Shown here: positions 3,276 to 34,400 of the stretch, one piece after another
Position numbering within the stretch: the stretch's first letter is position 1
Layout: every line of letters starts with the position of its first letter
From: an uncultured Gammaproteobacteria bacterium
Lineage (GTDB): Bacteria > Patescibacteriota > Microgenomatia > Daviesbacterales > UBA10151
Assembly: GCA_964446685.1 (NCBI GenBank)
Contig: CAYUPO010000003.1
Coordinates: 39,183-103,182, forward strand
Direction: 5' to 3'
Length of the DNA stretch: 64,000 bases
Made by a program: the position numbers and the translations under genes
The notes under the pieces: model-generated
What the model saw: only the letters and a program-made list of their open reading frames with translations
Databases searched by the model: none
Told to the model about the DNA's origin: nothing

Positions 3276-3388
3276 GTCTGGCAGTGAGCTATCTTCACAC
3301 AACCTTGCGGATGCATTATTGTCACCGCTGTAGCGTTTGACTACTGAGTTCGGGATGGGATCAGGTCGGACCACTACGCACAAACCAC
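3276..3388 (-). rRNA. rrf: 5S ribosomal RNA
   Basis: The reverse complement reads 'TCTGGTGG...CCGAACTCAGTAGTCAAACGCTACAGCGGTGA...CTCACTGCCAGACC'. The conserved 5S loop-C segment 'CCGAACTCAG(A/T)AGTsAAAC' is present. Helix I pairing between the two ends is present with G·U wobbles. Confidence 0.75.
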
Positions 3389-3528
3389 CAGAAGTCAAGT
3401 ATAGCGTATATAGTAATTAGTATCAAGAGGGAGCTACAAAAGGTATTAAGGGGTAAGTATTAAGTATAAAGAGAAAGACATATAAGAAGGTGACTCCTCC
3501 TTAATACTTTATACTTAACCCTTAATAC

Positions 3529-4029
3529 TTAATTTGATATGCTTTTCTTGCAGTAGAGAATTGGTGCTGATGATGTTCCTAATGCACCGCATCCGGTGGT
3601 AGGAGCGGTATCCACATTGGCTTTACCTGTTGGATTTACGAGTCTTGCACATATTATATAAGAAGTTGCTAATGTATTGGCAGCATTACAGCCATAATAG
3701 GTGTACTGATAGCTGGAAACTTCTCCGGTATTGGGATCACTAGGCGGTATATTGTTTGAAAAATAACCATTAAGCACTGTTAAAGCACTAATATTGCTTG
3801 ATCCATTAATTGCAGCTAAGGCAGGATAGCCATTGTTTGTCGCGTAGTATTGCTCTAAAGCGTTTTGGATTTCGCCGATTTCATTAATTCTTCTGCCATC
3901 CCGGGCATTTTTTTGAGCCTGACCAAAAAGTGCGGTACCAATTACTGAGACAATCGCAATTATGGCTATGGCAACCATTAGTTCGATTAAAGTAAATCCG
4001 GATCTGTTTTGAAAATGGGCAGTCTTCAT
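3529..4029 (-). CDS. Type IV pilin / pseudopilin (prepilin-type N-terminal cleavage/methylation domain)
   Basis: N-terminus 'GFTLIELMVAIAIIAIVSVIG' is the class III signal (G|FTLIE). Cys pairs sit near the C-terminus. 166 aa. Confidence 0.7.
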   Translation of the reverse strand: MKTAHFQNRSGFTLIELMVAIAIIAIVSVIGTALFGQAQKNARDGRRINEIGEIQNALEQYYATNNGYPALAAINGSSNISALTVLNGYFSNNIPPSDPNTGEVSSYQYTYYGCNAANTLATSYIICARLVNPTGKANVDTAPTTGCGALGTSSAPILYCKKSISN

Positions 4030-4093
4030 CTGTAATTAGTATTTCAGTTTTGGCTGATAAAAGTCAACAACAGAGCAAAAAATGCTATTATGA

Positions 4094-5731
4094 ATGTGTA
4101 TGAATATCCTGTCTACCATACTTTTTCTGCTTTCCTCTGCTATTTCTTTCGGATTGATTTATTTTAATTTAAGCCATGTGATCGGGCAGCAGGTGATCTC
4201 GGTAATTTTGCTGGTCTCAGTGGTTTTTTTAGGTAAATTTAATCTGGGAAAACAAAAAGCGCCACTCTGGCAGACCGGAATTGCTATTTTACTCAGTTCT
4301 TTTCTGGTCCAGACACTGATCATTTCCAGTGGCGGGCTCTATAGTCCTCTGCTGATTGTGATTCATCTTTATACTTTAGGGGCTATTTTTCTGCTGAATA
4401 GCAAATCCCCGATATTTTTTCTGCTTTTTACTTTAGGTGTCTTATCTTCTCAACTAAAATACGATCCGATTTTAGTGTCAGCTTTTCAAAATGATCCATG
4501 GACAGCAGTAATTTATGGATTATCATTTCTGATCATTATTCCTCTGGCTCTTTATCTCTCTCACAACTACTTTATTAAAGATGCCTTTACCAAAATATTA
4601 AAAAACTACATCCAGCTGCAGGAGCAAAAAGAGAGTTCGATTTTGACTTCTTTAAATGATCTGGTGGTGGTAACAGACCCTACTCTGGGAATATTGTCAG
4701 TTAATAATGCTGTGGAAAAGTTTCTGCAAATGGATAAACAACAGGTATTGGGTAAAAGATTTTTAGATATATTTTCCTTTAAAGATATGTCCGGTGTAGC
4801 TGGGAACACATCATCTTTATCAATTGACGCTGTAATGCAGGATAAATCCTCCCGCTATGTTGAAGGATATATGCTCGATACTGTAGCCAATATCAAACCA
4901 AAGCCGGTTTTACTCCAGATCCGCCCCCTGACAGATGCCAAAGGAGTAATTACTCAAATTGTCTTTGTGATGAGTGAGCCAAGCGCCAAAAAACAGCAGC
5001 AGGGCCACCAAAATACGCTTGAAGCAATTAAGCGAAAGAATAATCTGCTTGAAACATTTGCTCATCTAAGCCCAAATACTCCATATGAAAGTGTTAAAGC
5101 CAAAATCGGACTTATTACTCATATTGAAGAAGATATCTCTCTAGCGCAGGAGCTGGAAGACCATCAAATTAGTGAAAAACCCGCCTTGGTAGATCTGGTA
5201 GTGCTAGCAGATCAACAACTGCATCAGTCGCAAAGTCTGGCCGATTTTCTGGCGGTCAAAACCGTTTTTAATTATTATGATCCGGAAGGATCGGAAAAAG
5301 CTTCACTTGATCTGCAAAAATCCAATCTTTCTGATGCCATGACATCCCCTTCCCTTTATAGTCTGCCTCTGGAAAGAAAGTTTGTCAGCATTCTGATACT
5401 TAAAATGACTGAAATAGGCATACTGATTGCTTCAGGAACTGCAAACAGAGCTGTCACACTCGATGCATCCTGGGATAATGATCGAAAAGTATATTTAAAA
5501 GTTTTGCTTCCAAACCCAGGTCTCAAACAGGAAGAGTTGTCAGATTTGTTGGTCCTAAATAATCCTCTATTATCCTCCAAAACTCATCTTATTTTTGGGA
5601 GTGGCCTTGAAGGCTTCATCTTAAAAAAGCTCTGCACCTATCTAAACATTCCGCTTAACCTGCAGATAGCAGAAAATAACACCAAAATAGCCATAGAAAT
5701 CACCCTGGATAAATCTGCCAGAACTATTTAA
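4094..5731 (+). CDS. Multi-pass membrane sensor: 5-6 TM + PAS-like + degenerate H-box + GHKL ATPase-like (histidine-kinase-like), paralogue of 13960..15597
   Basis: Hydrophobic N-terminal ~170 aa. PAS-like block 'LNDLVVVTDPTLGILSVNNAVEKFLQ'. 'FAHLSPNTPYESV' resembles the HisKA H-box. C-terminal 'GSGLEGFI' resembles the G2 box. Same length (545 aa) and architecture as the second copy. Confidence 0.45.
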   Translation: MCMNILSTILFLLSSAISFGLIYFNLSHVIGQQVISVILLVSVVFLGKFNLGKQKAPLWQTGIAILLSSFLVQTLIISSGGLYSPLLIVIHLYTLGAIFLLNSKSPIFFLLFTLGVLSSQLKYDPILVSAFQNDPWTAVIYGLSFLIIIPLALYLSHNYFIKDAFTKILKNYIQLQEQKESSILTSLNDLVVVTDPTLGILSVNNAVEKFLQMDKQQVLGKRFLDIFSFKDMSGVAGNTSSLSIDAVMQDKSSRYVEGYMLDTVANIKPKPVLLQIRPLTDAKGVITQIVFVMSEPSAKKQQQGHQNTLEAIKRKNNLLETFAHLSPNTPYESVKAKIGLITHIEEDISLAQELEDHQISEKPALVDLVVLADQQLHQSQSLADFLAVKTVFNYYDPEGSEKASLDLQKSNLSDAMTSPSLYSLPLERKFVSILILKMTEIGILIASGTANRAVTLDASWDNDRKVYLKVLLPNPGLKQEELSDLLVLNNPLLSSKTHLIFGSGLEGFILKKLCTYLNIPLNLQIAENNTKIAIEITLDKSARTI

Positions 5732-5834
5732 ATCAATCCTATTACTGAAGATTTAGAAAGTTACGTAGTAATTTTAAGTATTTTGTCCACATCTGAGATA
5801 GGCTAGGGAAACAATTAGAAAATTTGCAGATCGT

Positions 5835-7160
5835 CTATTTACCAAAATTTGTTATTAATAAATTAAAATCAAAAATATCCACTTTGCCATTGTTATCAAT
5901 ATCACCCACCAGATTTGCTCCTGTTTTATTAAAATTTGTTACCAACAAGTTAAAGTCGAAGATATTTACTACCCCATTACCATCTATATCTCCCGGCTTA
6001 ATCAGAATAATGGAGGACGAAGGACTAGGTTGCGCTTGATTTATTACTTCTTCGCGCCAATTAGTAATATATAGATCTGCTATTGGACCTCCTGAACTTG
6101 TTACGCTGCGGGCTTCAGTTCCTACTCCAATGGCGGTTGTTTTAGCACCTTCCCAGCTGCCTGACACTGGAGGAATGAGTATTTTACGTCCGGTCAAACC
6201 CACTCCGTTTTTATTCTTCTCATCCTTCTCTACCAGATACTTTATAAGACCGGCAAAATCAACCTCTACATTTACCTCTTTGTTCAGAGGAAAATTGCCA
6301 TTGAATAATTGTCCATCAATTTTAATAAACTGGGCAATCTGAGAAGACTTGGCATCAAGAATTGCGTCATCAGTCAAGTAAACATCCCTATTTTTAAAAA
6401 TTTGTATCAAATCAGGGTCGTGAGGATAATCATCTCCCCATCCTGTTAAAGTAAGATTAATTTCGATTTCGTGAGCTGTTTCGTTAATTGTGGTCCCATT
6501 AATAACAGGTCTTTCACCTTCATCCCAGGTTCCCTGCCAGTAAATCAACAGTCGATTAGCGCCACTGGAGACAACCTCGTTAAAATTTATCTTTGTACTG
6601 AATTTTAACTTATCAGGCCGAGCTCTATTTATTCTTTCTCCTCCTCCATTGGCATGGTCCATTAAAACGAAGAAGTTGTAATTATCCACCCCGCATTGAA
6701 GGGGGTAGGTAAAATTATTTAAGTCTGTTTTAAGGTGCACTGTTTTATTTGGCCGATCCAGCTCATCATTGTGATCTAACCAGCCAATTGTGTTAGGCGT
6801 TGACGCATCTAAGGGGTCTTCCTCTCGCCTGAGTTTAAATGATTGAACATCAGGTCCTGGGCAACTTTTAAACCCTCCGTTTAATTGTGCTGATTCATTT
6901 TGTATTGCCACCAACCAATGGTGTTCGTCATTACATTGATTTAGTGGATCGACAAAGTAATTCAGAGTTCCCGGTGTTAAGCTTTTAATGCATCTTTTTG
7001 TCAGATTATAATCCCAACCTTGAGGTTGATAGTTAGGTTGATTCTCCTGGGCTTTTGGTGAAAGATTAGTTTTTTGCTGAACTAAATAAGCTCCAAACCC
7101 AATACCAACTACTAAAACAAGAACTGTTAAGATAGGCGCAAAACCTTTTTGACTTACCAC
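5835..7160 (-). CDS. Membrane-anchored secreted protein with C-terminal dockerin repeats
   Basis: N-terminal TM + 'YLVQQKTNLSPKAQE' family motif. C-terminus 'DIDGNGVVNIFDFNLLVTNF...DIDNNGKVDIFDFNLLITNF'. Confidence 0.6.
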   Translation of the reverse strand: MVSQKGFAPILTVLVLVVGIGFGAYLVQQKTNLSPKAQENQPNYQPQGWDYNLTKRCIKSLTPGTLNYFVDPLNQCNDEHHWLVAIQNESAQLNGGFKSCPGPDVQSFKLRREEDPLDASTPNTIGWLDHNDELDRPNKTVHLKTDLNNFTYPLQCGVDNYNFFVLMDHANGGGERINRARPDKLKFSTKINFNEVVSSGANRLLIYWQGTWDEGERPVINGTTINETAHEIEINLTLTGWGDDYPHDPDLIQIFKNRDVYLTDDAILDAKSSQIAQFIKIDGQLFNGNFPLNKEVNVEVDFAGLIKYLVEKDEKNKNGVGLTGRKILIPPVSGSWEGAKTTAIGVGTEARSVTSSGGPIADLYITNWREEVINQAQPSPSSSIILIKPGDIDGNGVVNIFDFNLLVTNFNKTGANLVGDIDNNGKVDIFDFNLLITNFGK

Positions 7161-7207
7161 CTATTTATAGTGACATAATCTGATCAAGAGAACAATTATT
7201 TAGGCAT

Positions 7208-7231
7208 TAAAAAAGCCCCTTGCGGAGCTTT
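7208..7231 (-). terminator. Hairpin + T-tract immediately 3' of the 23S rRNA
   Basis: The minus strand reads AAAGCTCCGCAAGGGGCTTTTTTAATG. A GNRA-looped stem is followed by T6, ~95 nt after the inferred 23S 3' end. Confidence 0.45.
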
Positions 7232-7639
7232 AATAATTTTTTGGAGCTAAAATTTGTGCTCAAAAATGTGAATACGACTTAGAAGGCTTCTTATACCTGA
7301 CTTTCGTCAAGCGAAACCAAAAAATCTCAACTATGACCATTAGTAGAAGTAAGCTAAACACGTTGCCATGCTTACACTGCTTCCCTATCAACCAGGTAGT
7401 CTACCTGGGGTCTTAGAGATTCCTCATCTTGGGGTCTGTTTCGTGCTTAGATGCTTTCAGCACTTATCAGGAAATAACGTAGCTACCCTGCGCTGCCAGT
7501 TTACTGACAACAGGCACACTAGCGGTTACCTCATCTCGGTCCTCTCGTACTAGAGACAACTCCCCTCAAGAATCCAAACGCCCATACTGGATAGAGTCCG
7601 AACTGGCTTACGCCGTTCTGAACCCAGCTCGCGTACCGT

Positions 7640-7672
<33 letters not shown>

Positions 7673-7705
7673 ACTTCAGCCCCAGGATACGATGAGCCGA
7701 CATCG

Positions 7706-8241
7706 CTCAATTCACAATATTACTATTATGGTTAGACTATACCTTCATCCCTCCTGATGAAATCAGATCAGATCGGATGAGATCGGATGAGATCGGAAAC
7801 TAGGTTTCTGATCTATCTGATCTATCTGGTCTATCAGATCTATCTGGATGGAGCCAATCGTGTTATAAAAGTTTGTTATCCGGGTAACCCGGCCACTTTT
7901 ATCCTAACGTACAAAAGTACGTTAAAGTCGTTACAGTGGGATGTACCTATTGGTACTTCCCTACCTCGGTATTGACCTGTCATTACTGATAGGTGTTCAC
8001 CGATTTTGATTGGTTCATCTACTTTCGTAGACTTTATTTCAAGAAGACACTAAATTAAATTCAAAATATCAAATCCAAAATTTCAAACAAATCTAAAATA
8101 TCAAACTCTAAAATTTAAAACGTTTTTAATGTTTTTATTTTTGAATTTAACCATTGTTTGTTATTTGGTGCTTTGGATTTTGAATTTTTCCAGATATTAC
8201 AGTACTACAGGATTACTCCTGCCGCACCCCAATGTTATTAA
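7706..8241 (-). mobile_element. Group I-like intron in 23S at E. coli-equivalent position 2500 (peptidyl-transferase loop), ORF-less
   Basis: It interrupts 'GGCACCU|CGAUGUCGGCUC'. The 5' exon ends in U, and the intron's internal 'GGGGTG' can pair with exon 'CACCU', giving the P1 U·G. The intron ends in G. An S-like element 'GAAGGTATAGTCT' lies near its 3' end. It contains AT-rich simple repeats and GATCGGATGA/TCTGATCTATC repeats. No homing endonuclease ORF is present. Confidence 0.6.
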
Positions 8242-8278
8242 AGGTGCCGAACCTTACCGTCCTTGTGGACTGTTGGGT

Positions 8279-8315
<37 letters not shown>

Positions 8316-8780
8316 ATAAGCCTTATCGATCCCATGATCAAATAAAGGATCACTTAAGCCTGCTTTCGCACCTGCTCGACCTGTTTGTCTCGCAGTCAAG
8401 CCCACTGTATACTTATGCGCTTGTAACCTCAATTTCTTTTTGAGGTAAGTGGACCTTTGCACTCCTCCGTTACGATTTTGGAGGAAACCGCCCCAGTTAA
8501 ACTGTCCGCCAGACCTTGTCTCACTCCCTGTTTTTATAAGGGTAAGTGGTTAGTCCTGTTAAATTAAAAGAGAGGTATTTCACGGTTGCCGAGGCTCCCT
8601 CCTATTCTACACAATTAATTCAACAAAACAGGGCCAAGCTCCAGTAAAGCTCCACGGGGTCTTCTTGTCCAAGTATGGGTAGGCCGCATCTTCACAGCCA
8701 TTGCAATTTCACCGGATCTATCCTCAAGACAGTCACTAAGTCGTTCTGCCTTTCGTGCGGGTCTGAACTCACCAGACAAG

Positions 8781-9230
8781 GAATTTCGCTCATTCCTATA
8801 TACACTTTGTATAAAATTTTGATGTTAACTTAAAACTTGCGTTTTAATGTGGATGAGTGACTTCCACTCTCTTAATCGCTTAAGAGTTCGGACTATATCT
8901 TGTACAAGTTTTAGCTTTTTTCTTGTACTCTAACATGTAGTCTCTGAGGGTTCGTGACAGATAGATCAGAGTTTCAGCGTAATCAGTGGATCAGATTATG
9001 GATAAATCGGATAGATCAGAACTTGCGTTCTGACTTCTCTGACTTCTCTGTCATCTGATTTCAGCTGATTTGCTGATCTTTCTGACGTCTCTGAAACGTC
9101 TTCCCTGCTGATTGACTCCGTCAATGAATTGTTACTGCTTTTTATAGCGAGTACCATTGCATACTGAGTTATTCCAGCAAATAGTTAGATTACAAAAACA
9201 CTGTATTGTCGCTTCTAAGGCGGCTAATTC
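8781..9230 (-). mobile_element. Group I intron in 23S at E. coli-equivalent position 1931 (helix 69-71 region), ORF-less
   Basis: It interrupts '...CTATGGT|AGCGAAATTCC'. The intron ends in G. It contains 'CAGAGACTACATG' (R element) and 'CAAGATATAGTCCGAAC' (S element), which nearly match the Tetrahymena consensus, with a P8-like hairpin between them. Confidence 0.75.
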
Positions 9231-10725
9231 ACCATAGAACAGTTATAGTTACTGCTGCCGTTCACCAGATCTTAGTCCCCAAGCTCGTCCCAACCTTGCG
9301 GCAGGAGTCACCTGAAAGTTTAAATTACTGGCACTGGGCAGGCGTCAGCCCGTATACATCAGCTTTCGCTTTGGCACGGACCTGTGTTTTTGATAAACAG
9401 TCGCTCAGTGGCGTTCGCTGCGACCCTGAAATCTTGCGATCCAGGGTGGGACATCTTGCTAACTTACGTCCAGCTATATTGCCGAGTTCCTTAAGGATAG
9501 TTCTTCCGATCGCCTTTGTATACTCAACTCGCCCACCTGTGTTGGTTTTAGTACGGTTTCTCTATGTTTCCATTACGAGGATTTTCCTGAAAACAGAAAA
9601 ATTCTTCCTTTCGGCGTCACAACTCACCTTTGTATCATGCACCTTACGGCACATGACAGCCCGACGAATCGGACCAAGAGCGGATTTGCCAACTCTCGCT
9701 AATTTGTTGCTTGCACTAGCATATAGCTAGCGAAGGTTTTCCCATTCTGTCCCCTCTTAAGGGCTCCTAGATAAATAAATTTATTTCGGACTTGTCAAAC
9801 ATAAAAAAGTACAGGAATTTTAACCTGTTGTCCATCCCATACGCCTTTTGGGGGCCTCTGGTTAGGACCGACTTACCCGACCCTGATTAACATTGGATCG
9901 GAAACCTGGGGCATTCGGCGGACTGATTTCTCATCAGTCTTTCGTTACTCATACCGGCATTCTCACTTCTAAACAATCCACCGCCTCTCACAAGTACGAC
10001 TTCACTTCGTTTAGAACGCTCCCCTACCACTTGTATTACTACAAATCTAAAGCTTCGGCAGTACATTTAGCCCCGATAAATTGTCGGCGCCACTGACCGT
10101 AGTAGACCAGCGAGCTGTTACGCTTTCTTTAAAAGATGGCTGCTTCTAAGCCAACTTCCTGGCTGTCTAAGGTCGATGACTTCCTTTAACACTTAATGTA
10201 CATTTAGGGGCCTTAGCTGTTAGTCTGGGTTGTTTCCCTTGAGACCGCTCCGCTTAGCCGGATCGGACTGACTCCTGCTACACAATATAGTATTTGAAGT
10301 TTGATTGGACCGATAGCATTGCTGCCACCAAGTCCATCCAGAGCTCTACCCCTATATTGATTGCACAGGGCTATACCTAGATATATTTCGGGGAGAACCA
10401 GCTATCTCCGAGTTCGTTAGGCATATCACCTCTAACCACAATTCATCCCAAAGAATTTCTGCTCTAGCGGGTTCGGTCCTTCACTCGTCTCTCGACGAGC
10501 TTCAACCTGATCATGGTTAGCTCACTCGGTTTCGGGTCTAAACACAGCTACTAATCGCCCGATTAGGGCTCGCTTTCACTACGGCTTCGTACAGAATACT
10601 TAGCCTTGCAGCAATGTTTAACTCACCGGTTCATTCTTCAATAGGCACGCGGTTCCACAAAAATGTGGTTCCACTGCTTGTCAACATACGGTTTCAGTTT
10701 CTATTTCACTGGGCGTCTCGCCCTT

Positions 10726-10765
<40 letters not shown>

Positions 10766-11699
10766 CGAAAGCATATTTAGCCTTAGCAAATGGTCTTGCT
10801 AGCTTCACCCAGGATTACACGTGTCCTGGGCTACTCAGGTGTTCAATAACGGTGTTTTAAATTTTAAATACAGGACTATCACCCTCTATGGTCTTACTTT
10901 CCAGCAAGTTCTTCTATTTAAAACACATCGCATAGCTTGAATCCTACAACCCTCCAGGCCTATCTCCTTACGGAAATAGGATAATCTGAAGTTTGGGCTC
11001 TTCCCTTTTCGCTCGCCACTACTTGGGGAATCATTATTATTTTCTGTTCCTGCGCTTACTTAGATGTTTCAGTTCAGCGCGTGCCCGCCGCCAACCTATG
11101 TATTCAGTTGGAGGTACTCTATAAAAGAGTGGGTTACCCCATTCGGAAATCTGTGAGTCAAAGCTTCTTGGCAGCTCTTCACAGCTTATCGCAACCATGT
11201 ACGTCCTTCTTCGGTGCTTTCGACCAAGGCATCCACCGTACGCCTTAATGTTGAGTATATTTTGGCTTCAATGACACACAAAAAGCTTCTTGCGAATCTT
11301 TCTGCATATCTAAATTTGGCCTTCCCATTCATAACTATCGATCGGATAGTTATGATGTTTGTTTTACTTCCACCCTTGCGGGTGTGATAAAACTGTCGTA
11401 TTCACATTTTAAAGTACAAACTCCAGGACTTAAGTTACTACGTCTTCCCTGCCTTTGCAGAGTTTTAAATGAATAATTGACGAATTCACCAAGCTCTTCG
11501 GCCCGGATATGAGCTTTCAATCATTTGATTAAAAAAACTTATCCTTGCTGAAAACCAACCCAAACTCTTTGCGTCAAACGTCTTTCATAGGTTGTGGGTT
11601 ATCTTTTATTTATATTTCGGCTTACGCCGAAGAGCGTAAGCTCGCAAGCTTCGCTTATATATGTAGATAACCCGTTTAAATGTCGTTCAGACATTTAAA

Positions 11700-11760
11700 C
11701 AGTCGAACCTCCTACATCTTCACTTTTGACGAAGTCAAAAGGAGCTTCGCTCACTTTCAA
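11700..11760 (-). other. tRNA-derived fragment (duplicate of the tRNA-Ala 3' portion lacking the T-stem 3' strand and acceptor) plus an 8-bp hairpin
   Basis: 'GTGAAGATGTAGGAGGTTCGACTG' on the minus strand matches tRNA-Ala positions ~39-60, then diverges. It is preceded by the perfect hairpin CTTTTGAC-TTCG-GTCAAAAG. Confidence 0.4.
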
Positions 11761-11808
11761 TTTATTGAAAGGAGTTTACTCATTGCATATGCTTCCACCG
11801 GGCAACTG

Positions 11809-11880
11809 TGGACCCGAGAGGAGTCGAACCTCCTACATCTTCATTGCAAATGAAGCGTTCTACCGGTGAACTACGAGCCC
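11809..11880 (-). tRNA. tRNA-Ala (anticodon UGC)
   Basis: Cloverleaf with acceptor GGGCTCG/CGGGTCC that includes the G3·U70 Ala identity pair. D-stem GTTC/GAAC. Anticodon loop TTTGCAA. T-arm GGAGG-TTCGACT-CCTCT. CCA not encoded. Confidence 0.8.
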
Positions 11881-12010
11881 GCTTAGGGATCCAACAACGC
11901 AAAAAAAGCCACATTTACTTTCGTATCTGTGTCTAAGTTTCGTATTTATATTTAAATTTGAGGGATGCAACGCTTGAGACTCCTCCAAGCCTGGAGGATC
12001 CAAGCTGGGG

Positions 12011-12116: not shown

Positions 12117-13937
12117 TTACTGGACTATTCCAGACAGCTTCAAGAGCTGAACCATTCCGGCGAAGTCAAAGGTGTTGATTACACCATCATCATTAGTATC
12201 CAGTTCATCGATCAGATCCTGAGTTTTATTCCAGTTTGATAACATGATTGACAGATCAACCAGATCAACTTTATTGTCCCTGTTGGAATCACCTTTAACA
12301 AATTGTCCGGCTGCCAATTCTGTGACCTGCAGTAATGGATTAGCTGACTTTACTGCAGCTGTGCCACCCTGTACCAGTGCATTGAAGTAGTATTCTGGTG
12401 GATTATTGATTCCAAAGTAACCATCTGGCTGGAATTCAGCTAACCATGAGCCGGTTGCCTGATTATTCGTATCAAATTTAGCAGATGGTGGCTGATTGTT
12501 AACTGGATCGGTACCGAGCGCACCATCGTCCTCAAAGATATTAAAGGAGACTGTTTTGCCTGCACAGGTACCTGTACCTGTCACATTTAGGTTAACTAAT
12601 TTCTTTTCCAGGATTGGATTACTGCTTGCAACCCAAGTGGCTGAGGATATATCACAAGTGGCGGCTATAGGTGATGGAGATGCAACTGGACTTGGCGCAA
12701 CTGATGCTGAAGCCACAACTGATGGTGATGCTACAGGTGATGGTGAAGGCGCTGCTGATGGAGCCACAGAAGCAGATGGAACAACACTAGGTGAGGCTAT
12801 TGGAGATGGAACTGGTGAAGCAATAGGTGAAGGTGATACTACAGGTGATGGTGAAGGCTGGGCAACAGCAGCTACAGTATAAGTACCACCAACAGAACTA
12901 AGCAGGATGTTGGCATTATCAGAGTTTCGGAATACAGTTGAAGTCCCATCAAAGAAAGCAAAGGCAGAACCAGCGGCTTTACCGGTAAAATAGACAGTAG
13001 CCATCAGTGAAGGAGTGGTTGTTCCTTTATAACCCGGTGTTGGTACACCACCTACAACTGAAATAGTTCCAGTGGCATTATCAAAACTAGTTGGGCTGGA
13101 AACCCATTGTGTTATAAAGCTTCCGGTGGTATCTATTCTGGAAACTGATAGTTTATTTGGATCGAAATTGATTTTGGCTGAGAATAGATTGGCATTTTCA
13201 ACGGCGTTTTTAACCCGGACCTGGATTGGCATCTCAGCTCCAACATTAACCGAACCTGAAGCAGGTGTTAAAGTGAATTCAGCTGTTTTTGTAACTGCCT
13301 GAGGGTCAGTCACTGTCACATCAGAATTAGTCAGACTACCGACCATATCACCTGTTTGATTTAAGGCGGCTACATGAGTAGTAGCAGGATCAATCGTTAT
13401 TTGGGAAGCAGTGGTAGTGGTATTTAAAGCCTTAAATTCAAGTGCTGCAACTGAACCAGTGCCACTTTTGTAGGCATTTACTTCCTGAGCATAAGTTAAA
13501 GCTATTGTCCCGCTTGAACTACTAATTTGAGGGGCAACCAGATCTTTAGCAAAAAAACTACTTCGGGCTACTGTTACCAGCTGCAGATTTTGCGGATTGT
13601 ATTTGATCCCCAACTCCATTGCTGTTGGCTGTTCAGTTTTTGCATCAATTGCAACATTAACCAAAAAAGTTTTGCCTTTTTCGATAGTTACTGTATTTGG
13701 TACAACTTCCAGATCAACTATACCAGCAGCAAAAGAGGAGTTTTTTGGAAATAAACTAGAAAAAAGAGTATTTTTGAAAGGAAGTACAGAAGAGAAGAAA
13801 AGATATCCTAAGATCCCAACAACAGCCACAAGAAGCAAAATAGCCGGTGCGATTACTCCTTTTTGATTTAGATCACTTAAATACCTGGACATTAAGATTA
13901 TTATGTGAATTTCTATATCTAAATTACAAGTAGGCAA
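12117..13937 (-). CDS. Large anchored surface protein: cohesin-like domains + Pro/Ser/Ala-rich linker + C-terminal dockerin repeats
   Basis: N-terminal TM + 'PFKNTLFSSLFPKNSSFAAG' motif shared with 56662..58044. 'GGVPTPG' motif shared with 44507 and 46978. (SPxP/ASPS)n linker. C-terminus 'DSNRDNKVDLVDLSIMLSNW...DTNDDGVINTFDFAGMVQLL'. Confidence 0.6.
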   Translation of the reverse strand: MPTCNLDIEIHIIILMSRYLSDLNQKGVIAPAILLLVAVVGILGYLFFSSVLPFKNTLFSSLFPKNSSFAAGIVDLEVVPNTVTIEKGKTFLVNVAIDAKTEQPTAMELGIKYNPQNLQLVTVARSSFFAKDLVAPQISSSSGTIALTYAQEVNAYKSGTGSVAALEFKALNTTTTASQITIDPATTHVAALNQTGDMVGSLTNSDVTVTDPQAVTKTAEFTLTPASGSVNVGAEMPIQVRVKNAVENANLFSAKINFDPNKLSVSRIDTTGSFITQWVSSPTSFDNATGTISVVGGVPTPGYKGTTTPSLMATVYFTGKAAGSAFAFFDGTSTVFRNSDNANILLSSVGGTYTVAAVAQPSPSPVVSPSPIASPVPSPIASPSVVPSASVAPSAAPSPSPVASPSVVASASVAPSPVASPSPIAATCDISSATWVASSNPILEKKLVNLNVTGTGTCAGKTVSFNIFEDDGALGTDPVNNQPPSAKFDTNNQATGSWLAEFQPDGYFGINNPPEYYFNALVQGGTAAVKSANPLLQVTELAAGQFVKGDSNRDNKVDLVDLSIMLSNWNKTQDLIDELDTNDDGVINTFDFAGMVQLLKLSGIVQ

Positions 13938-13959: not shown

Positions 13960-15597
13960 TTATTTTTGCTTACTCTTTTTATCAATATATAGCACCAGGC
14001 TTAGTGTTCTGGCAGTATTATCATATTCAGAATCGAGAGTAACATTTAATGCAGCGGCGATCTGCTGAGCAAAAATACCTTCCAAGCCTGAGGCGAATTT
14101 CAAATGGCTGCTGCTGCCTAGGGTTCCATATCCTTTGATAAAAAGCATTTTCTTTTCTTCAGGCAGAAGAGAGATCCCAGACACAGCGATCTTAATCCGA
14201 ACAATCGATTCATTATATAAATCTACCTGGACCAAGACCGTTTTTTGAGGGGTCGCCACACTCAGTAAATTAGCTATAAAAATAAGTTTATTTAGTAAAA
14301 TACCAAACCATTTAATTGATATTGAAGTACTGAAATAAGGAGAGGTCATCTGGATTGCAGACAGGTTTAGTCCAGGGGGCAAAGGTGCTAATTTGGTCTG
14401 AGATGAAAAAGCCAGATTATAAGACAGGGTATTGTTGATCAAATGCGAAAATTCCTGATTTTGACTGACCATATTACTGGTGAATTGGGCAAGATCAACA
14501 AATGATGGCACTTTATCATCATTGATCTGTTTAATTTCAGTTAGCAGCATACTATCTTCCCCCCAATTTTTGGCCAGATATAACTGCCCTGCCAGATGAG
14601 CTAATTTCCCTGAGATTAATTTGTCTTTCAAGTCCTCTAAAGTGGCCTGTTGTTTGATCTGAAGAGATTTAATAATCGACAGGGTATCCGGACTTGAATC
14701 AGTCTTAGCGGTAGTTTGAGTGTTAGTAATAATGAAAGTTATTTGTTCAACCGTCCCCTGAAGATCAGCAACAGGCTTAATATCCACCACTACATTAAAA
14801 GGGGCGGGATTATTTTTGGCATACATATTAATTTCGGTTAACCTTTTTTGAACTTTTTGGGTCAGAAAATCTTTAATTAACGGATGATCAGCATTCACAA
14901 AACTGTTATTTTTAGTCCTCAAATACAAAATATCAAAAATCGGCTTACTGACAATTTCTGTACGGGAGAGCATCAAAGCCCGCTCGACGGTATCATTGAC
15001 GGAAAGTATTTTTAAATCCAAATTAGTTATAAAAACCAGTTCATTGATCTCACCTAAAATAATTTTATTGGCTGAAACTTCCTTTTCTAAAATATTTGCC
15101 AGTTTTGCTTTGAGTTGAAACTGTTGGGCCAGAAAATAACAAAAAGGCAGAATAATAAAGTAGGACATAAAATAAAGCGTCAGACTGCCCGGATCCTCAG
15201 CCAAAGTAGTTGCCAGTCTGGGATCGATTTTTAAATGCACTAGCAATCCAAGTGCGGACAGGAAGACAAAAAAGAGTGACGCTTTGAGGCTAAGGAAAAA
15301 ACCAAGACCTAAAGCAAAAAAATGCAACATTACAAAAAATGAGCTGTAAAATCCACCGGTACTGTAAACCAAAAGCTCTACCAACATACTGCTGAAAAAT
15401 AAAAATAGCCATCTGATTACTGCTACTTTCCTGGCATTTGAAGCGGTAAATATAAATTTCTGAAAAAATATCAGTCCAATGATCAGCACGGCCATGGTGA
15501 TGTATTGAGTCTGAAGTGAGGAATTAAAATAAATCAGCAGCAGGGAAAAAAAATTGGACAAAAATAAAATAGTTACTTCAAGCAGAATGATTAACAT
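13960..15597 (-). CDS. Multi-pass membrane PAS + histidine-kinase-like sensor (paralogue of 4094..5731)
   Basis: 545 aa with the same architecture. PAS-like 'INELVFITNLDLKILSVNDTVERAL'. 'KLAHLAGQLY' is H-box-like. 'ASGLEGIF' is G2-like. Confidence 0.45.
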   Translation of the reverse strand: MLIILLEVTILFLSNFFSLLLIYFNSSLQTQYITMAVLIIGLIFFQKFIFTASNARKVAVIRWLFLFFSSMLVELLVYSTGGFYSSFFVMLHFFALGLGFFLSLKASLFFVFLSALGLLVHLKIDPRLATTLAEDPGSLTLYFMSYFIILPFCYFLAQQFQLKAKLANILEKEVSANKIILGEINELVFITNLDLKILSVNDTVERALMLSRTEIVSKPIFDILYLRTKNNSFVNADHPLIKDFLTQKVQKRLTEINMYAKNNPAPFNVVVDIKPVADLQGTVEQITFIITNTQTTAKTDSSPDTLSIIKSLQIKQQATLEDLKDKLISGKLAHLAGQLYLAKNWGEDSMLLTEIKQINDDKVPSFVDLAQFTSNMVSQNQEFSHLINNTLSYNLAFSSQTKLAPLPPGLNLSAIQMTSPYFSTSISIKWFGILLNKLIFIANLLSVATPQKTVLVQVDLYNESIVRIKIAVSGISLLPEEKKMLFIKGYGTLGSSSHLKFASGLEGIFAQQIAAALNVTLDSEYDNTARTLSLVLYIDKKSKQK

Positions 15598-28463: not shown

Positions 28464-31400
28464 TTATGGAGTTTTTTTATTTAACAAATTACTTATCATT
28501 TCACTAACTGAAATTTGATTTAATTCAGCTTTTAAAGCAGCCATATTGAGCTTAAAATTTTGACCTACATTATATTTAACTTCAGCTATATTTTGGAATA
28601 AGCTGTGAGTTGCATTGATGGTTTTATCTATCCAGGTATTACTTTTAGGAATGGTATAAACAATCGGTGGTGTGTTTGATACATTATCAGTAAAATTCTG
28701 TTTAACCGACGCAATTAATTTTTCAGGTGTACCATCAGAAAAGATGATTTCTTCGACTTTAGATTGTTGTAAGTCAGGCAAAGTGGTGATAAAAGCTTCA
28801 ATTTTAGAGCTGCCAGGAGGTGCGGCATACTTATTGGTATAAATGCTTGTATCAGGTGCGAGATAAAAACTGATATTTGTGTTTTTTATATCTCCTGATT
28901 TCCACTTAAAGTTCAGGTTATTGGCAGCAGTCTGAATATAATTGTTGGTTAAAAAAGCCGAAACTTGGTCAAATTTGATCTTTTGCACTTTTTCTCTTAA
29001 CCCAAACTCTGTTGGAATTGTATATAGCGGAGCATCATTATAATAGTAAGCGGTTATCCGACTCGCAATGTCTTCATATGGATAAAAAATATTATTAAAA
29101 ATTAATCCTGGAGGATCACTACTTGCCCCTGCTTTTGCGTATAAGTTTGTTTGAATATTATAAATTGAATCTGAACTTTCGATGACAGTTTCTAATGGCG
29201 CAGTTGCAAAATCTATTGCTGGTAGATGGGGAGAAAACGGTGTTGTGTCTTTGACTAATGTGGCATCTCCAATTTGTTCTACAGGGATCATTTCCAGTTT
29301 TTCAACCGGCTTTAAGAATGAAGGCAGATTTATATCACTGATATCAGATAAAGCATTAGCTGCTGTCTGCTCAAATGTTTCAACTATTTGAGAAGGAAAA
29401 GATGGCGGTTTGATGGGGTCAAGTAATTCTTCTGCCACTTGATAATTTGTTGGTTGGTATTTACCAGTATTTGGATTTAACTGGAATGTAAATCTTTCTT
29501 CTTTATCTGTAATCACAACAAAAATACCATCATCTGTAACTACTTTTTTTGCGGTATGGGAAACTTGGCCGTAAGAATCTCCCCTGGTATATATTTCAAT
29601 TTGCTCTATTGCATGAGGATTAATTCCTCCTGGGATGAGAACTTCCTGCTCCCCTGGGTGATTGGTTAATATCTTACCCTGGAATGCAGGAATACCCGCC
29701 GTCTGACCGGTTGTATAGGTATCAATTGCTCCGCTTGCAGGGGATTTCAACGTAAAAACAACACCGTTTGGAACATCACCACCATCATCAAGAAACATCG
29801 CCCAATTTGAACCATTATATTTTTCTATACCAGTACTCGCATAGGGGGAAATTTTGTTTAAATCTGTTGATGTATGGGTTGAAATTGTCTGTGTCAGCTC
29901 ATCTGCATCGTATCTAAAATCAGTTGCCATTTGATCATTATGTTTTTGAAGTGCAGCAATGATATTTTCTTCTTTCATCTTCCTGGTCCAGCGCAAAGAT
30001 ACTTCCTGTAAACCAACTGCATAGTTTGATGTACCAATTGCTACTGGTTCTTCAAATAATCGCAGGATATCTTCATGTGTTGTGATAGCATCAGTAGTTT
30101 TACCGCCTCTGTAGAGTTTGGCATCAGTATAAAATCTTTCTCTAATATACCGTTCATATGCCTCATAATCCTGAGGTTTTATTTGTAACGCATTCAGGTA
30201 GGACTCAGGTACGAGTCCTCCCACCGGTATGGCAGCAGGCAACTTCATACCCATACTATTTGCTGAGACTTGGCCTTTAAATTTAGCCTCAAACTCAGCT
30301 CTGGCAGCTCTGAGTTCAGATAGAAAATTGTCATAATCACGATGAATGAGTTTTCCTCCAGGAGCGACTGGAGCTGGAGCCAGACCAAATTCATTAAAGA
30401 AGAAATCATAAAACGTTTTATCTTCACTTAGTCCAAGCATTTCTGCTTCATCGGTTATTCCTATTCTCTCAAGTGTCTGTCTCCATTTGGCCATTTCTTC
30501 AGCTTTTTGGCTGCCATTTTTTATCTGCTCAGTCCATGATTCAAGAGGCAGAATAATATCATCATTAAATTCAGACAATATTGGAGGGGTTTTACCGGCA
30601 TTTTCCAGAGACCAGTTCATCAAAGTTCGGGACAATCGACCATTTACATCTCCATATGGATGAATTGTAATCAATCTTCTTTGTAGCTCAGCAGCCAGCT
30701 GGAATGGATCATGGGATGGATTACTTGCTTGCTGGTTGTACCATTTTGCCAGATCACTTAATAATTCCTCCACAAAGGCCTGATTAGCTGGAATAGAGGC
30801 TGTTTTGCCTACTGGACCTATCCGATCTTTGGCATCTTGGGGCAGAGATTCATAAATTTTTCGGCCTTTTTCTGAATTGAGACTTGGGTATTCAATAATC
30901 CCTGCATTTGGATCTTCTCCTCTTTGCAAGAATTCGAGTAATGGATTGTTCCTAATCTCATCAGCATGTTCTTTGGTATAGGTCGCGGGACCAGGTTGTG
31001 AGTAATCCCCTCCCCTCGCTGCCCCTATTCGAGGAGATCCACCAATACTTGGATCGGCAGTTCCTGTTAAACGAATATGCAAATCTCTTATAAAATCAAC
31101 TGTTAAAGGTTGTTTACCATAGGCTCTAGCTGCTGTGCGGGCATTCAGCCAGTCAACCCATGCTTCTTCTCCAAATGTTTTTTCAAGTCCAGTCTGGCCG
31201 GTGATAATTCCAGTTCTGACAAATTTGTCATCTACTAATAAAGCCGTTTCTGCTGTTTTAGCAAGTGGGGTGTTAGTCTGGGTGATTTCTTCAACTTTTT
31301 GAGTATAAGTTGGCAGATCGATTTCATTCTTTTTCAATGAGGCAGTCAATGTATCTATTTCGGTTCTAGCTTCAACCCAATTTGGTTCAGGTAATGCCTG

Positions 31401-34400
31401 CCGAGCAACCGGAATAATATCATCAAATTGTGAAGCAGGCTGAGGTAATATCTCATCAAGTAACTCGCCAGCAGATTTCTGAAAATCAAGCACTACATCA
31501 TCAACGCCATCCGCTGCCGCAGCCACTCCGGGAATATCATCCAAACCAGGAACTGACTGAACCAAAGAACTAAGTGGTCCACAAGGCCCAGTAGAAGCTG
31601 CCAGAACTTCTCCGGTTGAGGCGCCTAGGACATTTGAAGTTTGGTTGGCTTGGGCAAGATTTGATGCTTGTGGAATTGAAGCTAAATTACAGTTAGCTGA
31701 ACCTAAGAAGCCTGATCGTACATTCACATCGGGATTTGTTTTTTCTACCTCTCTGATAAACAGTTCGACAAAATTTTCCTGCTGAAGCCGCATAGCTGCA
31801 AAATCTAGGAAACCAGCTGAAACAGGTTTTAGACCTCTTTCAGCTAGCATAGTATTTGCAATACCTAGGTAAAGTGAGTTGTTTACTTCTCTAAAAGATC
31901 TGGCTACTACACCATACTGGTATGATTCTGCAATCAATCGTAACTGATCTTCTAAAGAAAGGGTTCTATCAGTTGTTAATTGCTGCATTCTCAACCGCAT
32001 TTGTTCAAAATACTCATTTGTAAACCTTGGATCTGGATAGTTATGCGTTAATCCATAGGGATAATTCCAATCCTTACTTGCTCCGCCTTTGGATATTCCT
32101 GGTAATTGCAGGTACTGCTCAACATCAATATTTTTGTTTCTTACAGCCATTAAATTGTCAAAATATGGATCATTGAGATCCCTTGCGACTCTTGCAACAT
32201 AAGTATTTACAATTTCAAAGTGGCCCTCTGATACCATTCTTCCAGGAACAAGAGCACCCCCCTGCATATCTGGTTTATAGGCTATTTCCTGATGAGCAGC
32301 CCTCAACCAATTTAGAAATACATTTGAAGAACTAAAGTTTCGAGGATCAGAAAGTGAATCAGTGACATAAGCCCTTAGTGCAAGATTAGCATTTATAAAA
32401 TTTCCTTTAGAGAGGTCAACTGTTGGCTGATAACCATAGAAATAATGTCCATCTGGATAAATATATGGATGAACCTGTCTCATATTTCTATCTGGTCCAA
32501 TCTCTCCTGCATCTCTGACTAGACCTTTCCAAAAATCAGCTAATTCAGGTGTAACCTTTCCATCTCTCACCGCTATTTTAATTGCACTATTTAGATCACG
32601 CAGTTGGGATGGTGTTAATGGTACTGGAGGTGGATTACCAGAAGTATTTATTCTTTCTAAATCATCAACTAAGGATCCTAGAGGATAAAATGCCTGACTT
32701 ACAGCATCATCAACTCTTGTTGCTATTGGGATTCCAGTAGGGGAAGTAATTACTGCCCCGTCAGTCAGTAAATCCGCACTGTCATCAATCAATACACTAT
32801 CGTCTGTAAGCGGCGGAATCTGAGAAGTATTTTGGCCAGCTTTCAGTATTCTGGCCTGTGCTTCTAAAGATTCAGCCAATGTATCATTACCTAAAATTCT
32901 AGCAACTCTGGCAGCCTCTTCGAGCCCTTCTGCTGCCAAAATAGCAGTAGGACCAATAACAGGCATGCCTGCTAATGGAGTTTGCAGCACACCATCCACT
33001 ACATCTGCTGCAGCATTACCAGCGGTTTGAACTGGTGCAGGGGCAGTGCTAACTGCATTTCTAACAGCACTCGCAATACTGCCTGCAGCATCATCTGCTG
33101 TAGTCACTACTACCTGAACTGCTCCGGTTACATTTTGAACGGCTTGGGTAACAGGTGGGACTGAAGCTGGATTAGCAGGAGCGACAGAATTTGCCTGCTT
33201 TAGTTGAAGATAAAGGTCAATTTTCTCATCAGCTGACAAAAGACTTGGATTTATCCCTCTCCTGGTTAATTCTTCTCCTACTCTATTTCCAACTGTTGCA
33301 CTTGGAATCCTGTATTCAGTTCTGATTTCAGGAATTATTTCAATTTCTAATTCTAGATAAACAGGCTTTAACCGGCTTATGCTGTCATTTAAAGGTGCAA
33401 GTTCTCTGTTAAATTGGTCGATAGCTGCTTGATTGAGAGTTCCTGAAGCTCTGGCCTCCTCAACTCTTTGCATAATAAGTTTTTGCTGCTGAACAGCGTT
33501 TGTATATTCAGGTTTAATTTGATCTAGCCGATTTTCTGCCTGAATTAGTAACGCTCTGATCTCAGGTAATTGGTTTAAGTTTGTTCTAGCTGAAGCATGT
33601 CTTAGACTGTTTTCCAAAGAAATATAAAACGCATCTAGTTGATCCCCCAGATTATCAACTACAGCAGATATCGCAGTATTAGTTCTTGGATTTACTGGGA
33701 TCTCTCTTGCAGCTTGCGCGAAAGGACTTATTGCTGAAACAGAATTAATTGATGCTGGGGCTTGTGTGGTTGGATTAGCAGGAATATTTGGCGCCGTAGC
33801 AGGAGCTGGTGGAGTAGGTGTTTTTGGATTTATTTCATCTGAGATTCTTCTGATTGCAGCGTTTAGATCTGGATCGGTATCCCTCATCCCCTGCCTGATC
33901 AGGGCAGCGCGAATCTGGTCATCACTGACAGGATTTACTAATGTAGCCTTACCTGTACTTATATCAAAATTCACTCTCTGGAAACCGGTAAAATCCATCA
34001 CTACTTCTCTTTCAATATCAGTTACTAATCTTGTAGCTGAAGTTGCTGGATTAATTACTATCGGCACCTGCTGGGTATTAACTTTTTGGGCAGCTGCAAA
34101 TGTTGTGTTAAATTCAGATTCTGCAATAATTTTGATATCACCACTCAATTTGCCGGGTAACCACTTCCCTGGTGTTGCCGCTTTAGCAAATTCGCGGAGA
34201 TTTTGTGGTGCAGTGTGGGGTAAAATAATTTGATCTAATATTACGGTCCCATCACCAGATTTTTGGTATCTGGCAATTATCCATAATCCTTGTTTTCCTG
34301 TATCACTGATACCGAGCCTGCCAGTTGTATCCATAAAGAATGCTACATCAGTTTTTGCAGGCTGCTTCCAAAGTCCAAATCCACTCGCCTCTGAAAACCC

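Follow-up and report, generated by a model that had tools for sequence, protein, structure and literature searches.

What interrupts the 23S rRNA gene in the 64,000-nt stretch of contig CAYUPO010000003.1 analysed here (the whole stretch is referred to as the window), and would the interruption leave the transcript or stay in the ribosome? The gene, on the minus strand, is a complete bacterial 23S rRNA gene by Rfam, but it measures 3938 nt against a 2925-position model. BLAST comparison with an intron-less bacterial 23S rRNA gene identified two clean breakpoints, which account for insertions of 440 nt and 536 nt (7706–8241). The 440-nt insertion lies directly after the residue equivalent to Escherichia coli U1931 and is referred to here as the L1931 intron. 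Our analysis indicates that it is very probably a bona fide group I intron without an open reading frame (ORF), carried by a Daviesbacteria-like host of the Candidate Phyla Radiation (CPR). The host appears to resemble Candidatus Daviesbacteria as judged by the best 23S and intron matches among the loci listed, which are a biased sample.

The borders of the insertion could be placed to the nucleotide. The L1931 intron starts with GAAUUAGCC and ends in ...UAGGAAUG; on the minus strand, the 5′ border reads ...GUAACUAUAACUGUUCUAUGGU in the exon and GAAUUAGCCGCCUUAG in the intron, and the 3′ border reads UAUAGGAAUG in the intron and AGCGAAAUUCCUUGUC... in the exon. E. coli numbering is our own count, anchored on the loop of helix 69, U1939 and A2503, and intron nucleotide n corresponds to window position 9231 − n. 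The intron splits CUAUGGU from AGCGAAAUUCC directly after U1931, that is, between GGU and AGCGAAAUUCC. This interruption of the conserved GGU, which the first-pass annotation had described, is seen in the sequence, in the BLAST comparison and in the Rfam large-subunit (LSU) alignment, where the same insertion appears as 443 nt left unaligned between ...GUUCUA and G--AGCGAAAUUCC. The terminal G that had been proposed was located at 8791 and is followed by the 3′ exon (...UAGGAAUG and then AGCGAAAUUCC). The interval first assigned to the intron was 8781–9230; its upper end is correct, whereas its lower end moves to 8791, since 10 nt of 3′ exon (AGCGAAAUUC) had been included. The 5′ exon ends, in its longer form, with ...GUUCUAUGGU, and position 1928 is a U and not the usual A, a variant also seen in each of the seven further CPR loci that have a related intron and were examined at this position (L012, L032, L061, L064, L107, L108 and L092). 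The intron-less 23S used as reference, NZ_AP027616.1 (L005), is labelled as an E. coli plasmid and its 23S is not E. coli-like. This 2.9-kb RefSeq record consists almost entirely of the 23S rRNA gene, starts with GGTCAAGCTACGAAGGGC, and is probably a contaminant contig in that assembly.

The assignment to group I introns was supported by both a general model and a family of close homologues. In an E-value-threshold scan, the Rfam model RF00028 matched 8869–9240 on the minus strand with 46.5 bits (E = 1.4e-10) and with model positions 1–253 fully covered. P3, P4, P5, P6, P8 and P9 can all be recognised in the alignment, together with the R and S elements, and the R, S and J8/7 segments of the window match the model consensus. 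The R and S elements recognised in the first pass correspond to CAGAGACUACAUG at 8946–8934 and AAGAUAUAGUCCGAAC at 8901–8886, and the P8-like hairpin noted between them is a 7-bp stem, GUACAAG...CUUGUAC, at 8928–8902. We identified relatives by scanning GTDB representative genomes for CAGAGACTACA-N15-45-AAGATATAGTC, which returned at least 120 loci. At least 45 bacterial and archaeal loci among those listed carry the core inserted exactly between CTAAGGT and AGCGAAATTCC, in hosts that include Patescibacteria, uncultured Gammaproteobacteria, Acidobacteria, Phycisphaerales and DPANN archaea. Among the matches listed, these L1931 relatives are 224 to 816 nt long, and the closest to the window is a 322-nt intron in a Candidatus Daviesbacteria metagenome-assembled genome (MAG; locus L032), 82.6% identical at the aligned positions. 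An nhmmer profile of 10 relatives, from which the window was excluded, matched 9237–9090 (E = 5e-19) and 8957–8786 (E = 1e-13), and had no match in the 64 kb other than the L1931 intron. The intron belongs to a widespread L1931 family that is IC1-like, with a complex P5 and no convincing P2, and the original proposal of a group I intron at 1931 is thus borne out by the clean insertion, the model match and the homologues at the same site.

Conservation of the ribozyme core was assessed by mapping 36 core pairs on an 18-sequence MAFFT alignment, with P7 added as a pseudoknot. Standard pairs occupied 98.5% of the 646 pair cells, and 21 of the 36 core pairs showed changes on both sides. None of 500 shuffles reached the observed pairing values, and sliding the partners by 1–3 columns left 30–38% paired. 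Covariation was observed across the 18 homologues in P3, P4, P5, P6, P8 and P9, so that the helices required of a group I core do covary; compensatory changes affected five of six pairs in P3 and all five in P8, and six of the seven P9 pairs covaried, with three of the four positions of the GCGA loop invariant. P7 itself was invariant (5/5 pairs unchanged in the 18 sequences). RNAalifold applied to the 10 relatives alone recovered P3, P4, P5 with its extension, P6, P8 and P9, with compensatory changes in 33 of 47 pairs. The 17 relatives have 60 invariant columns, 59 of which are unchanged in the window. The hairpins that follow P9 have counterparts at matching places in L032, with compensatory differences and the same GCAA loop.

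We infer that the intron splices by the standard group I mechanism, and the individual steps can be predicted from the sequence. In the precursor rRNA, the internal guide GCCUUAG would pair with the exon end CUAUGGU to form P1, in which six of seven positions are paired and a U·G wobble lies at the splice site; the best-scoring guide heptamer is exactly GCCUUAG in 30 of 46 extracted L1931 insertions, the window included. Free guanosine bound at the P7 site would attack after U1931, and the 3′-OH of U1931 would then attack after the terminal G at 8791 and join the exons. Exon joining would restore the strand that links helix 69, which forms an intersubunit bridge, to helices 70 and 71.

No ORF longer than 53 residues overlaps the L1931 intron, apart from an antisense ORF that extends into the exon, in agreement with the first-pass reading. 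About half of the retrieved L1931 members likewise lack an endonuclease gene. LAGLIDADG-type ORFs are present in the long relatives (motifs include NQQERL...VGFVDGEGCFS), and the extra length of the endonuclease-bearing members in the retrieved set lies in P6. The length of the P6 region is bimodal in the family, being 18–38 nt, or 410–485 nt where an endonuclease gene is present; that of the window, at 157 nt, is intermediate. A remnant of an endonuclease gene was sought by tblastn with the endonuclease-length ORFs of 21 relatives and rejected, the best match in the 23S gene having E = 0.25 and none in the whole window reaching E ≤ 0.01. Without a homing endonuclease gene the intron cannot home by itself any more, and it is most likely vertically inherited.

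What distinguishes the intron within its family is P6, which forms a 158-nt imperfect hairpin (intron nt 126–283) with a GCAA tip and a minimum free energy of −55.2 kcal/mol (z = −5.4 against dinucleotide shuffles). The first-pass annotation had described the intron as full of GATC-type repeats; the repeats are real but are not scattered, as they make up one long hairpin inserted in P6. The insert is built of tandem units of about 9 nt, GAnnnnUCA in the 5′ arm and UGAnnnnUC in the 3′ arm. Tandem Repeats Finder reported units of 9 and 10 nt at 9029–9071, and GATAGATCAG is present at 8960 and 9010. It is located at the tip of P6, where relatives hold the LAGLIDADG gene. In L032, P6 is short (CCUGAUCUACAUCAGG) and already contains CUGAUCUA. 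A clustered-motif scan of at least 120 genome loci identified no repeat clusters like those of the window insert, and the 132-nt tandem-unit hairpin was present in none of 132 other loci among the matches listed. In 12 loci from JGI metagenomes, P6 was delimited in four and was short in all of them (two of L032 type and one of L1951 type), with no intermediate in P6 expansion among these four.

Expanded P6 hairpins do occur in two other ORF-less L1931 introns, in a Phycisphaerales MAG (L020), where the unit is the 7-nt CTAGGAA, and in a Levyibacteriota MAG (L061), where AT-rich units of 7 and 11 nt are used. The units in both are unrelated to that of the window. These hairpins suggest a recurrent way to fill a loop that otherwise holds endonuclease genes. 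Taken together, the tandem-unit P6 hairpins of other lineages, the bimodal length of P6 and the stability of the antisense strand discussed below suggest generic expansion by unit duplication. We consider the P6 insert of the window to be a tolerated peripheral expansion, in which units of about 9 nt were duplicated on both arms, with no catalytic role and presumably neutral.

The 536-nt insertion in the same 23S gene proved to be a second group I intron, at L2500, which the first-pass annotation had not described. RF00028 matches it with 36.9 bits (E = 1e-7), so that it is missed by default scans. The L2500 intron has extra hairpins between P3 and P8, typical of IA-type introns, a P1 formed by GCACCU and GGGUGC, and a terminal G. 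AT-rich tandem repeats of 14–18 nt are present at 8057–8121. Its long hairpin is in P8, and a unit of about 9 nt (GATAGATCA) is common to this hairpin (7748–7852) and to that of P6 in the L1931 intron (8948–9105), in opposite orientation and in two unrelated introns.

The common unit raises the possibility that the two hairpins are copies of one lineage-specific element, and not the outcome of neutral slippage. Such an element could be a mobile palindromic mini-insert that colonises loops vacated by endonuclease genes, or a shared docking platform for a trans-acting host protein on which the two endonuclease-less introns would rely, with a part in their folding or degradation. In favour of a common element, an 11–13-nt unit, (CA)GATAGATCAGA, is found in each intron, with its orientation reversed between the two, and the introns have six 11-mer positions in common against 0.23 expected, a number that none of 2000 resamples reached. 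Their longest common word is 13 nt, and words of at least 13 nt arose in 25 of 2000 resamples. The periodic pattern UCAGA-N4 has five matches in the 64 kb against 0.28 expected, and all five are confined to the two 23S introns. A parallel is provided by the genome of L092, whose two 23S introns share a different private hairpin. Against a common element, no copy outside the two introns turned up when the 64 kb was searched by motif, periodic pattern and blastn-short, so nothing hints at a mobile element spread through the genome. Second arm, loop and unit length are not the same in the two hairpins, and the better folding of the antisense strand fits poorly with selection on the RNA. The hairpins of unrelated units in P6 of L020 and L061 fit generic slippage, and in myxomycete nuclear group I introns the arrays of direct repeats found in peripheral segments are viewed as probably neutral (PMC8395846). 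In addition, 1.1 kb of the same gene separates the introns, and local gene conversion could thus account for the unit they have in common. We therefore regard copies of one element as unlikely. If true, this explanation would suggest that CPR rRNA introns generally swap or co-opt peripheral hairpins within a genome, a behaviour not described so far.

The L092 locus, from Candidatus Daviesbacteria STC_54, contains the closest 23S rRNA gene among the matches listed (76–87.5% identity). It has a homologous intron at L2500 of about 300 nt (about 3880–4180, minus strand), in which P8 is short. A further intron at 4701–5076 (minus strand) has a core nearly that of the L1931 intron of the window, but is located at L1951 (between UCUGGU and GAGUUC). 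In the 18-sequence alignment this L1951 intron is the second-closest relative, with 68% identity over shared core columns, compared with 70% for L032 and 52–64% for the other L1931 introns. The near-identical cores at L1931 in the window and at L1951 in a related genome imply a site switch within the lineage. The private hairpin shared by the L1951 and L2500 introns of L092 is ACGUUYAGUUUACAURAACGU; it is present three times and is unlike the unit of the window, and its 8-mer core occurs nowhere else in that 8-kb locus.

Several observations weigh against an intact, splicing group I intron at L1931. The RF00028 score is below the curated gathering score of 50, and a default Rfam scan reports nothing for this intron; the RF00028 search put forward as a check in the first pass thus gave a full-length match that falls short of the cut-off. 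The near miss is largely due to a 138-nt insert in P6 and to a P8 that is short relative to the model. In J3/4, an A found in all the relatives is replaced by U in the window. P1 contains a U·U mismatch at position −4, opposite U1928; the compensating guide GCCAUAG is present in four of seven U1928 hosts, whereas GCCUUAG is kept in the window, L032 and L108. The canonical P10, between AGCG of the 3′ exon and CGCU upstream of the guide, is weak in the window, with two of four canonical pairs, and an alternative pairing is possible between the first intron bases GAAUU and exon AAUUC. Both long hairpins are more stable as antisense RNA (−61.9 versus −55.2 kcal/mol for P6, and −50.6 versus −36.6 kcal/mol for P8 of the second intron), which argues against RNA-level selection on the hairpins and has no bearing on the ribozyme core. 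Finally, the Simkania L1931 intron is called “unspliced” in the title of Everett et al (1999), as cited in PMC11270868.

As reported for Simkania, the L1931 intron could be real but not removed, so that mature 23S rRNA would contain it as an expansion tolerated at the helix 69–71 junction, and the U·U mismatch in P1, the weak P10 and the one changed invariant base of J3/4 would be in line with this. Yet the intron keeps all five P7 pairs and 59 of the 60 positions that do not vary in the family, which would be unexpected for a ribozyme no longer under selection, and the insertion site lies in a near-universally conserved strand next to helix 69. Insertions in CPR rRNA genes are also reported to be missing from transcripts, according to Brown et al as cited in PMC11270868. 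Retention is, in our assessment, highly improbable. Still harder to credit is a dead or inefficient ribozyme with RNase III-like cuts, without ligation, in the long P6 hairpin (P8 in the second intron) that would leave a fragmented 23S rRNA: the near-continuous hairpins of 158 and 105 nt are unusually long and are RNase III-type substrates, and intervening sequences so processed are known in bacterial 23S rRNA and suspected in CPR (PMC11270868), but after a cut inside P6 most of the intron would remain attached to the two rRNA fragments, where function is critical. The closest relatives have the same core without long hairpins, which indicates that the conserved ribozyme acquired its hairpins late. 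Known intervening-sequence sites lie elsewhere: the short non-intron insertions at such sites are 23IS2 and 23IS4, whereas 1931 belongs to the intron sites 23IS6–8 (PMC11270868). An ORF-less group I intron that would be removed by splicing is therefore our preferred reading, and its features are collected with those of the surrounding gene in Table 1.

Table 1. Coordinates of the L1931 intron, its structural elements and other RNA features of the window (nt in brackets, intron nucleotides).
Feature	Window positions	Strand	Details
Group I intron at L1931	8791–9230	minus	440 nt; nt 1 = 9230, terminal G (nt 440) = 8791
5′ exon end, last 7 nt CUAUGGU	9231–9237	minus	5′ strand of P1, ends in U1931
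Internal guide sequence GCCUUAG	9215–9221	minus	intron nt 10–16; 6/7 paired with exon
P3 5′ strand (nt 42–47), J3/4, P4 5′ strand (nt 53–57), P5 and extension hairpin (nt 62–116)	9115–9189	minus	RNAalifold, pair counts
P4 3′ strand (nt 120–124) and whole P6 (nt 125–284)	8947–9111	minus	
Lineage-specific 132-nt insert in P6	8958–9089	minus	unaligned by the relatives' profile; absent from L032 and L092
R element CAGAGACUACAUG	8934–8946	minus	P7 5′ strand with bulged A, then J7/3
P3 3′ strand (nt 297–302) and P8 hairpin (nt 303–329)	8902–8934	minus	
S element AAGAUAUAGUCCGAAC (J8/7 and P7 3′ strand) and P9	8869–8901	minus	P9 = 7-bp stem, GCGA tetraloop
3′ peripheral hairpins after P9: UGGA/UCCA, UUAAAAC-GCAA-GUUUUAA, UAUACA/UGUAUA	8792–8868	minus	read from sequence
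3′ exon start AGCGAAAUUCC	8780–8790	minus	sequence and Rfam alignment
Second group I intron	7706–8241	minus	536 nt; between GGCACCU and CGAUGUC, after E. coli U2500; breakpoint versus intron-less 23S
P8 hairpin of L2500 intron	7748–7852	minus	105 nt; arms GAUAGAUCA ×4 versus CGAUCUCAUC ×3
23S rRNA gene	7321–11258	minus	3938 nt, 976 nt of which are the two introns; RF02541 2208 bits, model 1–2925
5S rRNA	3276–3392	minus	
tRNA-Ala(UGC)	11808–11880	minus	upstream of 23S

The rRNA genes of the window are unlinked (3276–7321 and 11259–12000). The 16S rRNA gene is absent from the 64 kb, and the only such feature upstream of the 23S gene is tRNA-Ala(UGC). Between the 23S and 5S genes lie 3.9 kb with three ORFs, which encode a pilin-like N-methyl protein, a PAS protein on the opposite strand and a dockerin protein. 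This layout agrees with CPR genomes, in which the 16S, 23S and 5S genes are typically unlinked (PMC8172020). The 23S gene is flanked on both sides by membrane-plus-PAS proteins of 545 residues (4094–5731, plus strand; 13960–15597, minus strand), which are full-length paralogues with 27% identity (E = 1e-51), and a dockerin-containing ORF lies beside each of them (5835–7160 and 12117–13937). The window also contains one ORF of 4822 residues at 28464–42932 (minus strand).

For annotation, the L1931 and L2500 introns together add 976 nt, and as both fall below the Rfam cut-off, the 3.9-kb 23S gene would show unexplained insertions. The guide of the L1931 intron is not adapted to U1928 while sister lineages have compensated, which may reflect a recent transfer or a mismatch that is tolerated. 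Loops that hold endonuclease genes are repeatedly filled by hairpins of short tandem units, and in two genomes unrelated introns have such hairpins in common. The repeat hairpin of the window and the unit common to its two introns are a minor curiosity. The intron is one more case in the well-documented abundance of introns in CPR rRNA genes, and leaves the known group I mechanism unchanged.

An RNase III-processed intervening sequence, a stem-loop at the tip of helix 9, 25 or 45, was considered and rejected, as the insertion of the window breaks a conserved single strand and has a complete covarying core. The Tetrahymena thermophila LSU intron (IC1) has R and S elements around P7 and a J8/7, AAGAUAUAGUC, that we take to be near-identical to those of the window. 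It is located at L1925 in a eukaryotic nuclear gene. It has P2 and P2.1 and different peripheral domains, and the likeness to the window is one of mechanism and not of close kinship. Myxomycete nuclear introns are like the intron of the window in being ORF-less, with sporadic and lineage-specific tandem repeats in peripheral helices off the core (PMC8395846). The myxomycete units, however, are 20–303 bp long and lie in P1, P2 or P9 of eukaryotic nuclear introns (PMC8395846), whereas those of the window are about 9 nt long and placed on both arms, so as to give one long hairpin in P6 (P8 in the second intron) in a bacterial host.

Among bacterial introns, those at L1931 of Simkania negevensis, Thermotoga spp. 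and Synechococcus C1/C9 are 654–700 nt long and encode a single-motif LAGLIDADG endonuclease (PMC1995217). Like the intron of the window, they follow U1931 and have an IC1-like core, a complex P5, a classical P7 and no P2 (PMC1995217). Homology with these introns, whose sequences are not among the retrieved loci, is suggested by the common site, the fit to their description and the retrieved relatives that bear LAGLIDADG genes. Unlike them, the intron of the window has no ORF and no detectable ORF remnant. The first-pass annotation had named Simkania, Thermotoga and Coxiella as carriers of known L1931 introns; this holds for the first two (PMC1995217), but the Coxiella introns are located at L1917 and L1951 (PMC1995217). 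The Coxiella burnetii intron Cbu.L1951 and the L1951 intron of L092 occupy a site 20 nt downstream of that of the window, and the guide in L092 is matched to that site.

The closest parallels are found within CPR itself. In a survey of 348 CPR 23S genes, 82% carried insertions, Rfam assigned 45% of the insertions to group I introns, the ORF-less group I introns numbered 222, and 1931 was a recurrent insertion site (PMC11270868). As far as they are described in Tsurumaki et al (2024; PMC11270868) and in Brown et al (2015), as cited there, the ORF-less 1931 introns of CPR resemble the intron of the window in host group, gene, site, core and absence of an ORF. The resemblance extends to the presence of a second intron and to unlinked rRNA genes, which are typical of CPR (PMC8172020). 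The RF00028 score of the intron is just under the gathering score, yet it passes the E ≤ 1e-5 criterion of the CPR survey (PMC11270868). The 132-nt tandem-unit hairpin in P6 sets the intron of the window apart from the other introns among the loci listed. ORF-less group I introns at position 1931 of 23S rRNA are thus already documented in CPR, and the window adds another case.

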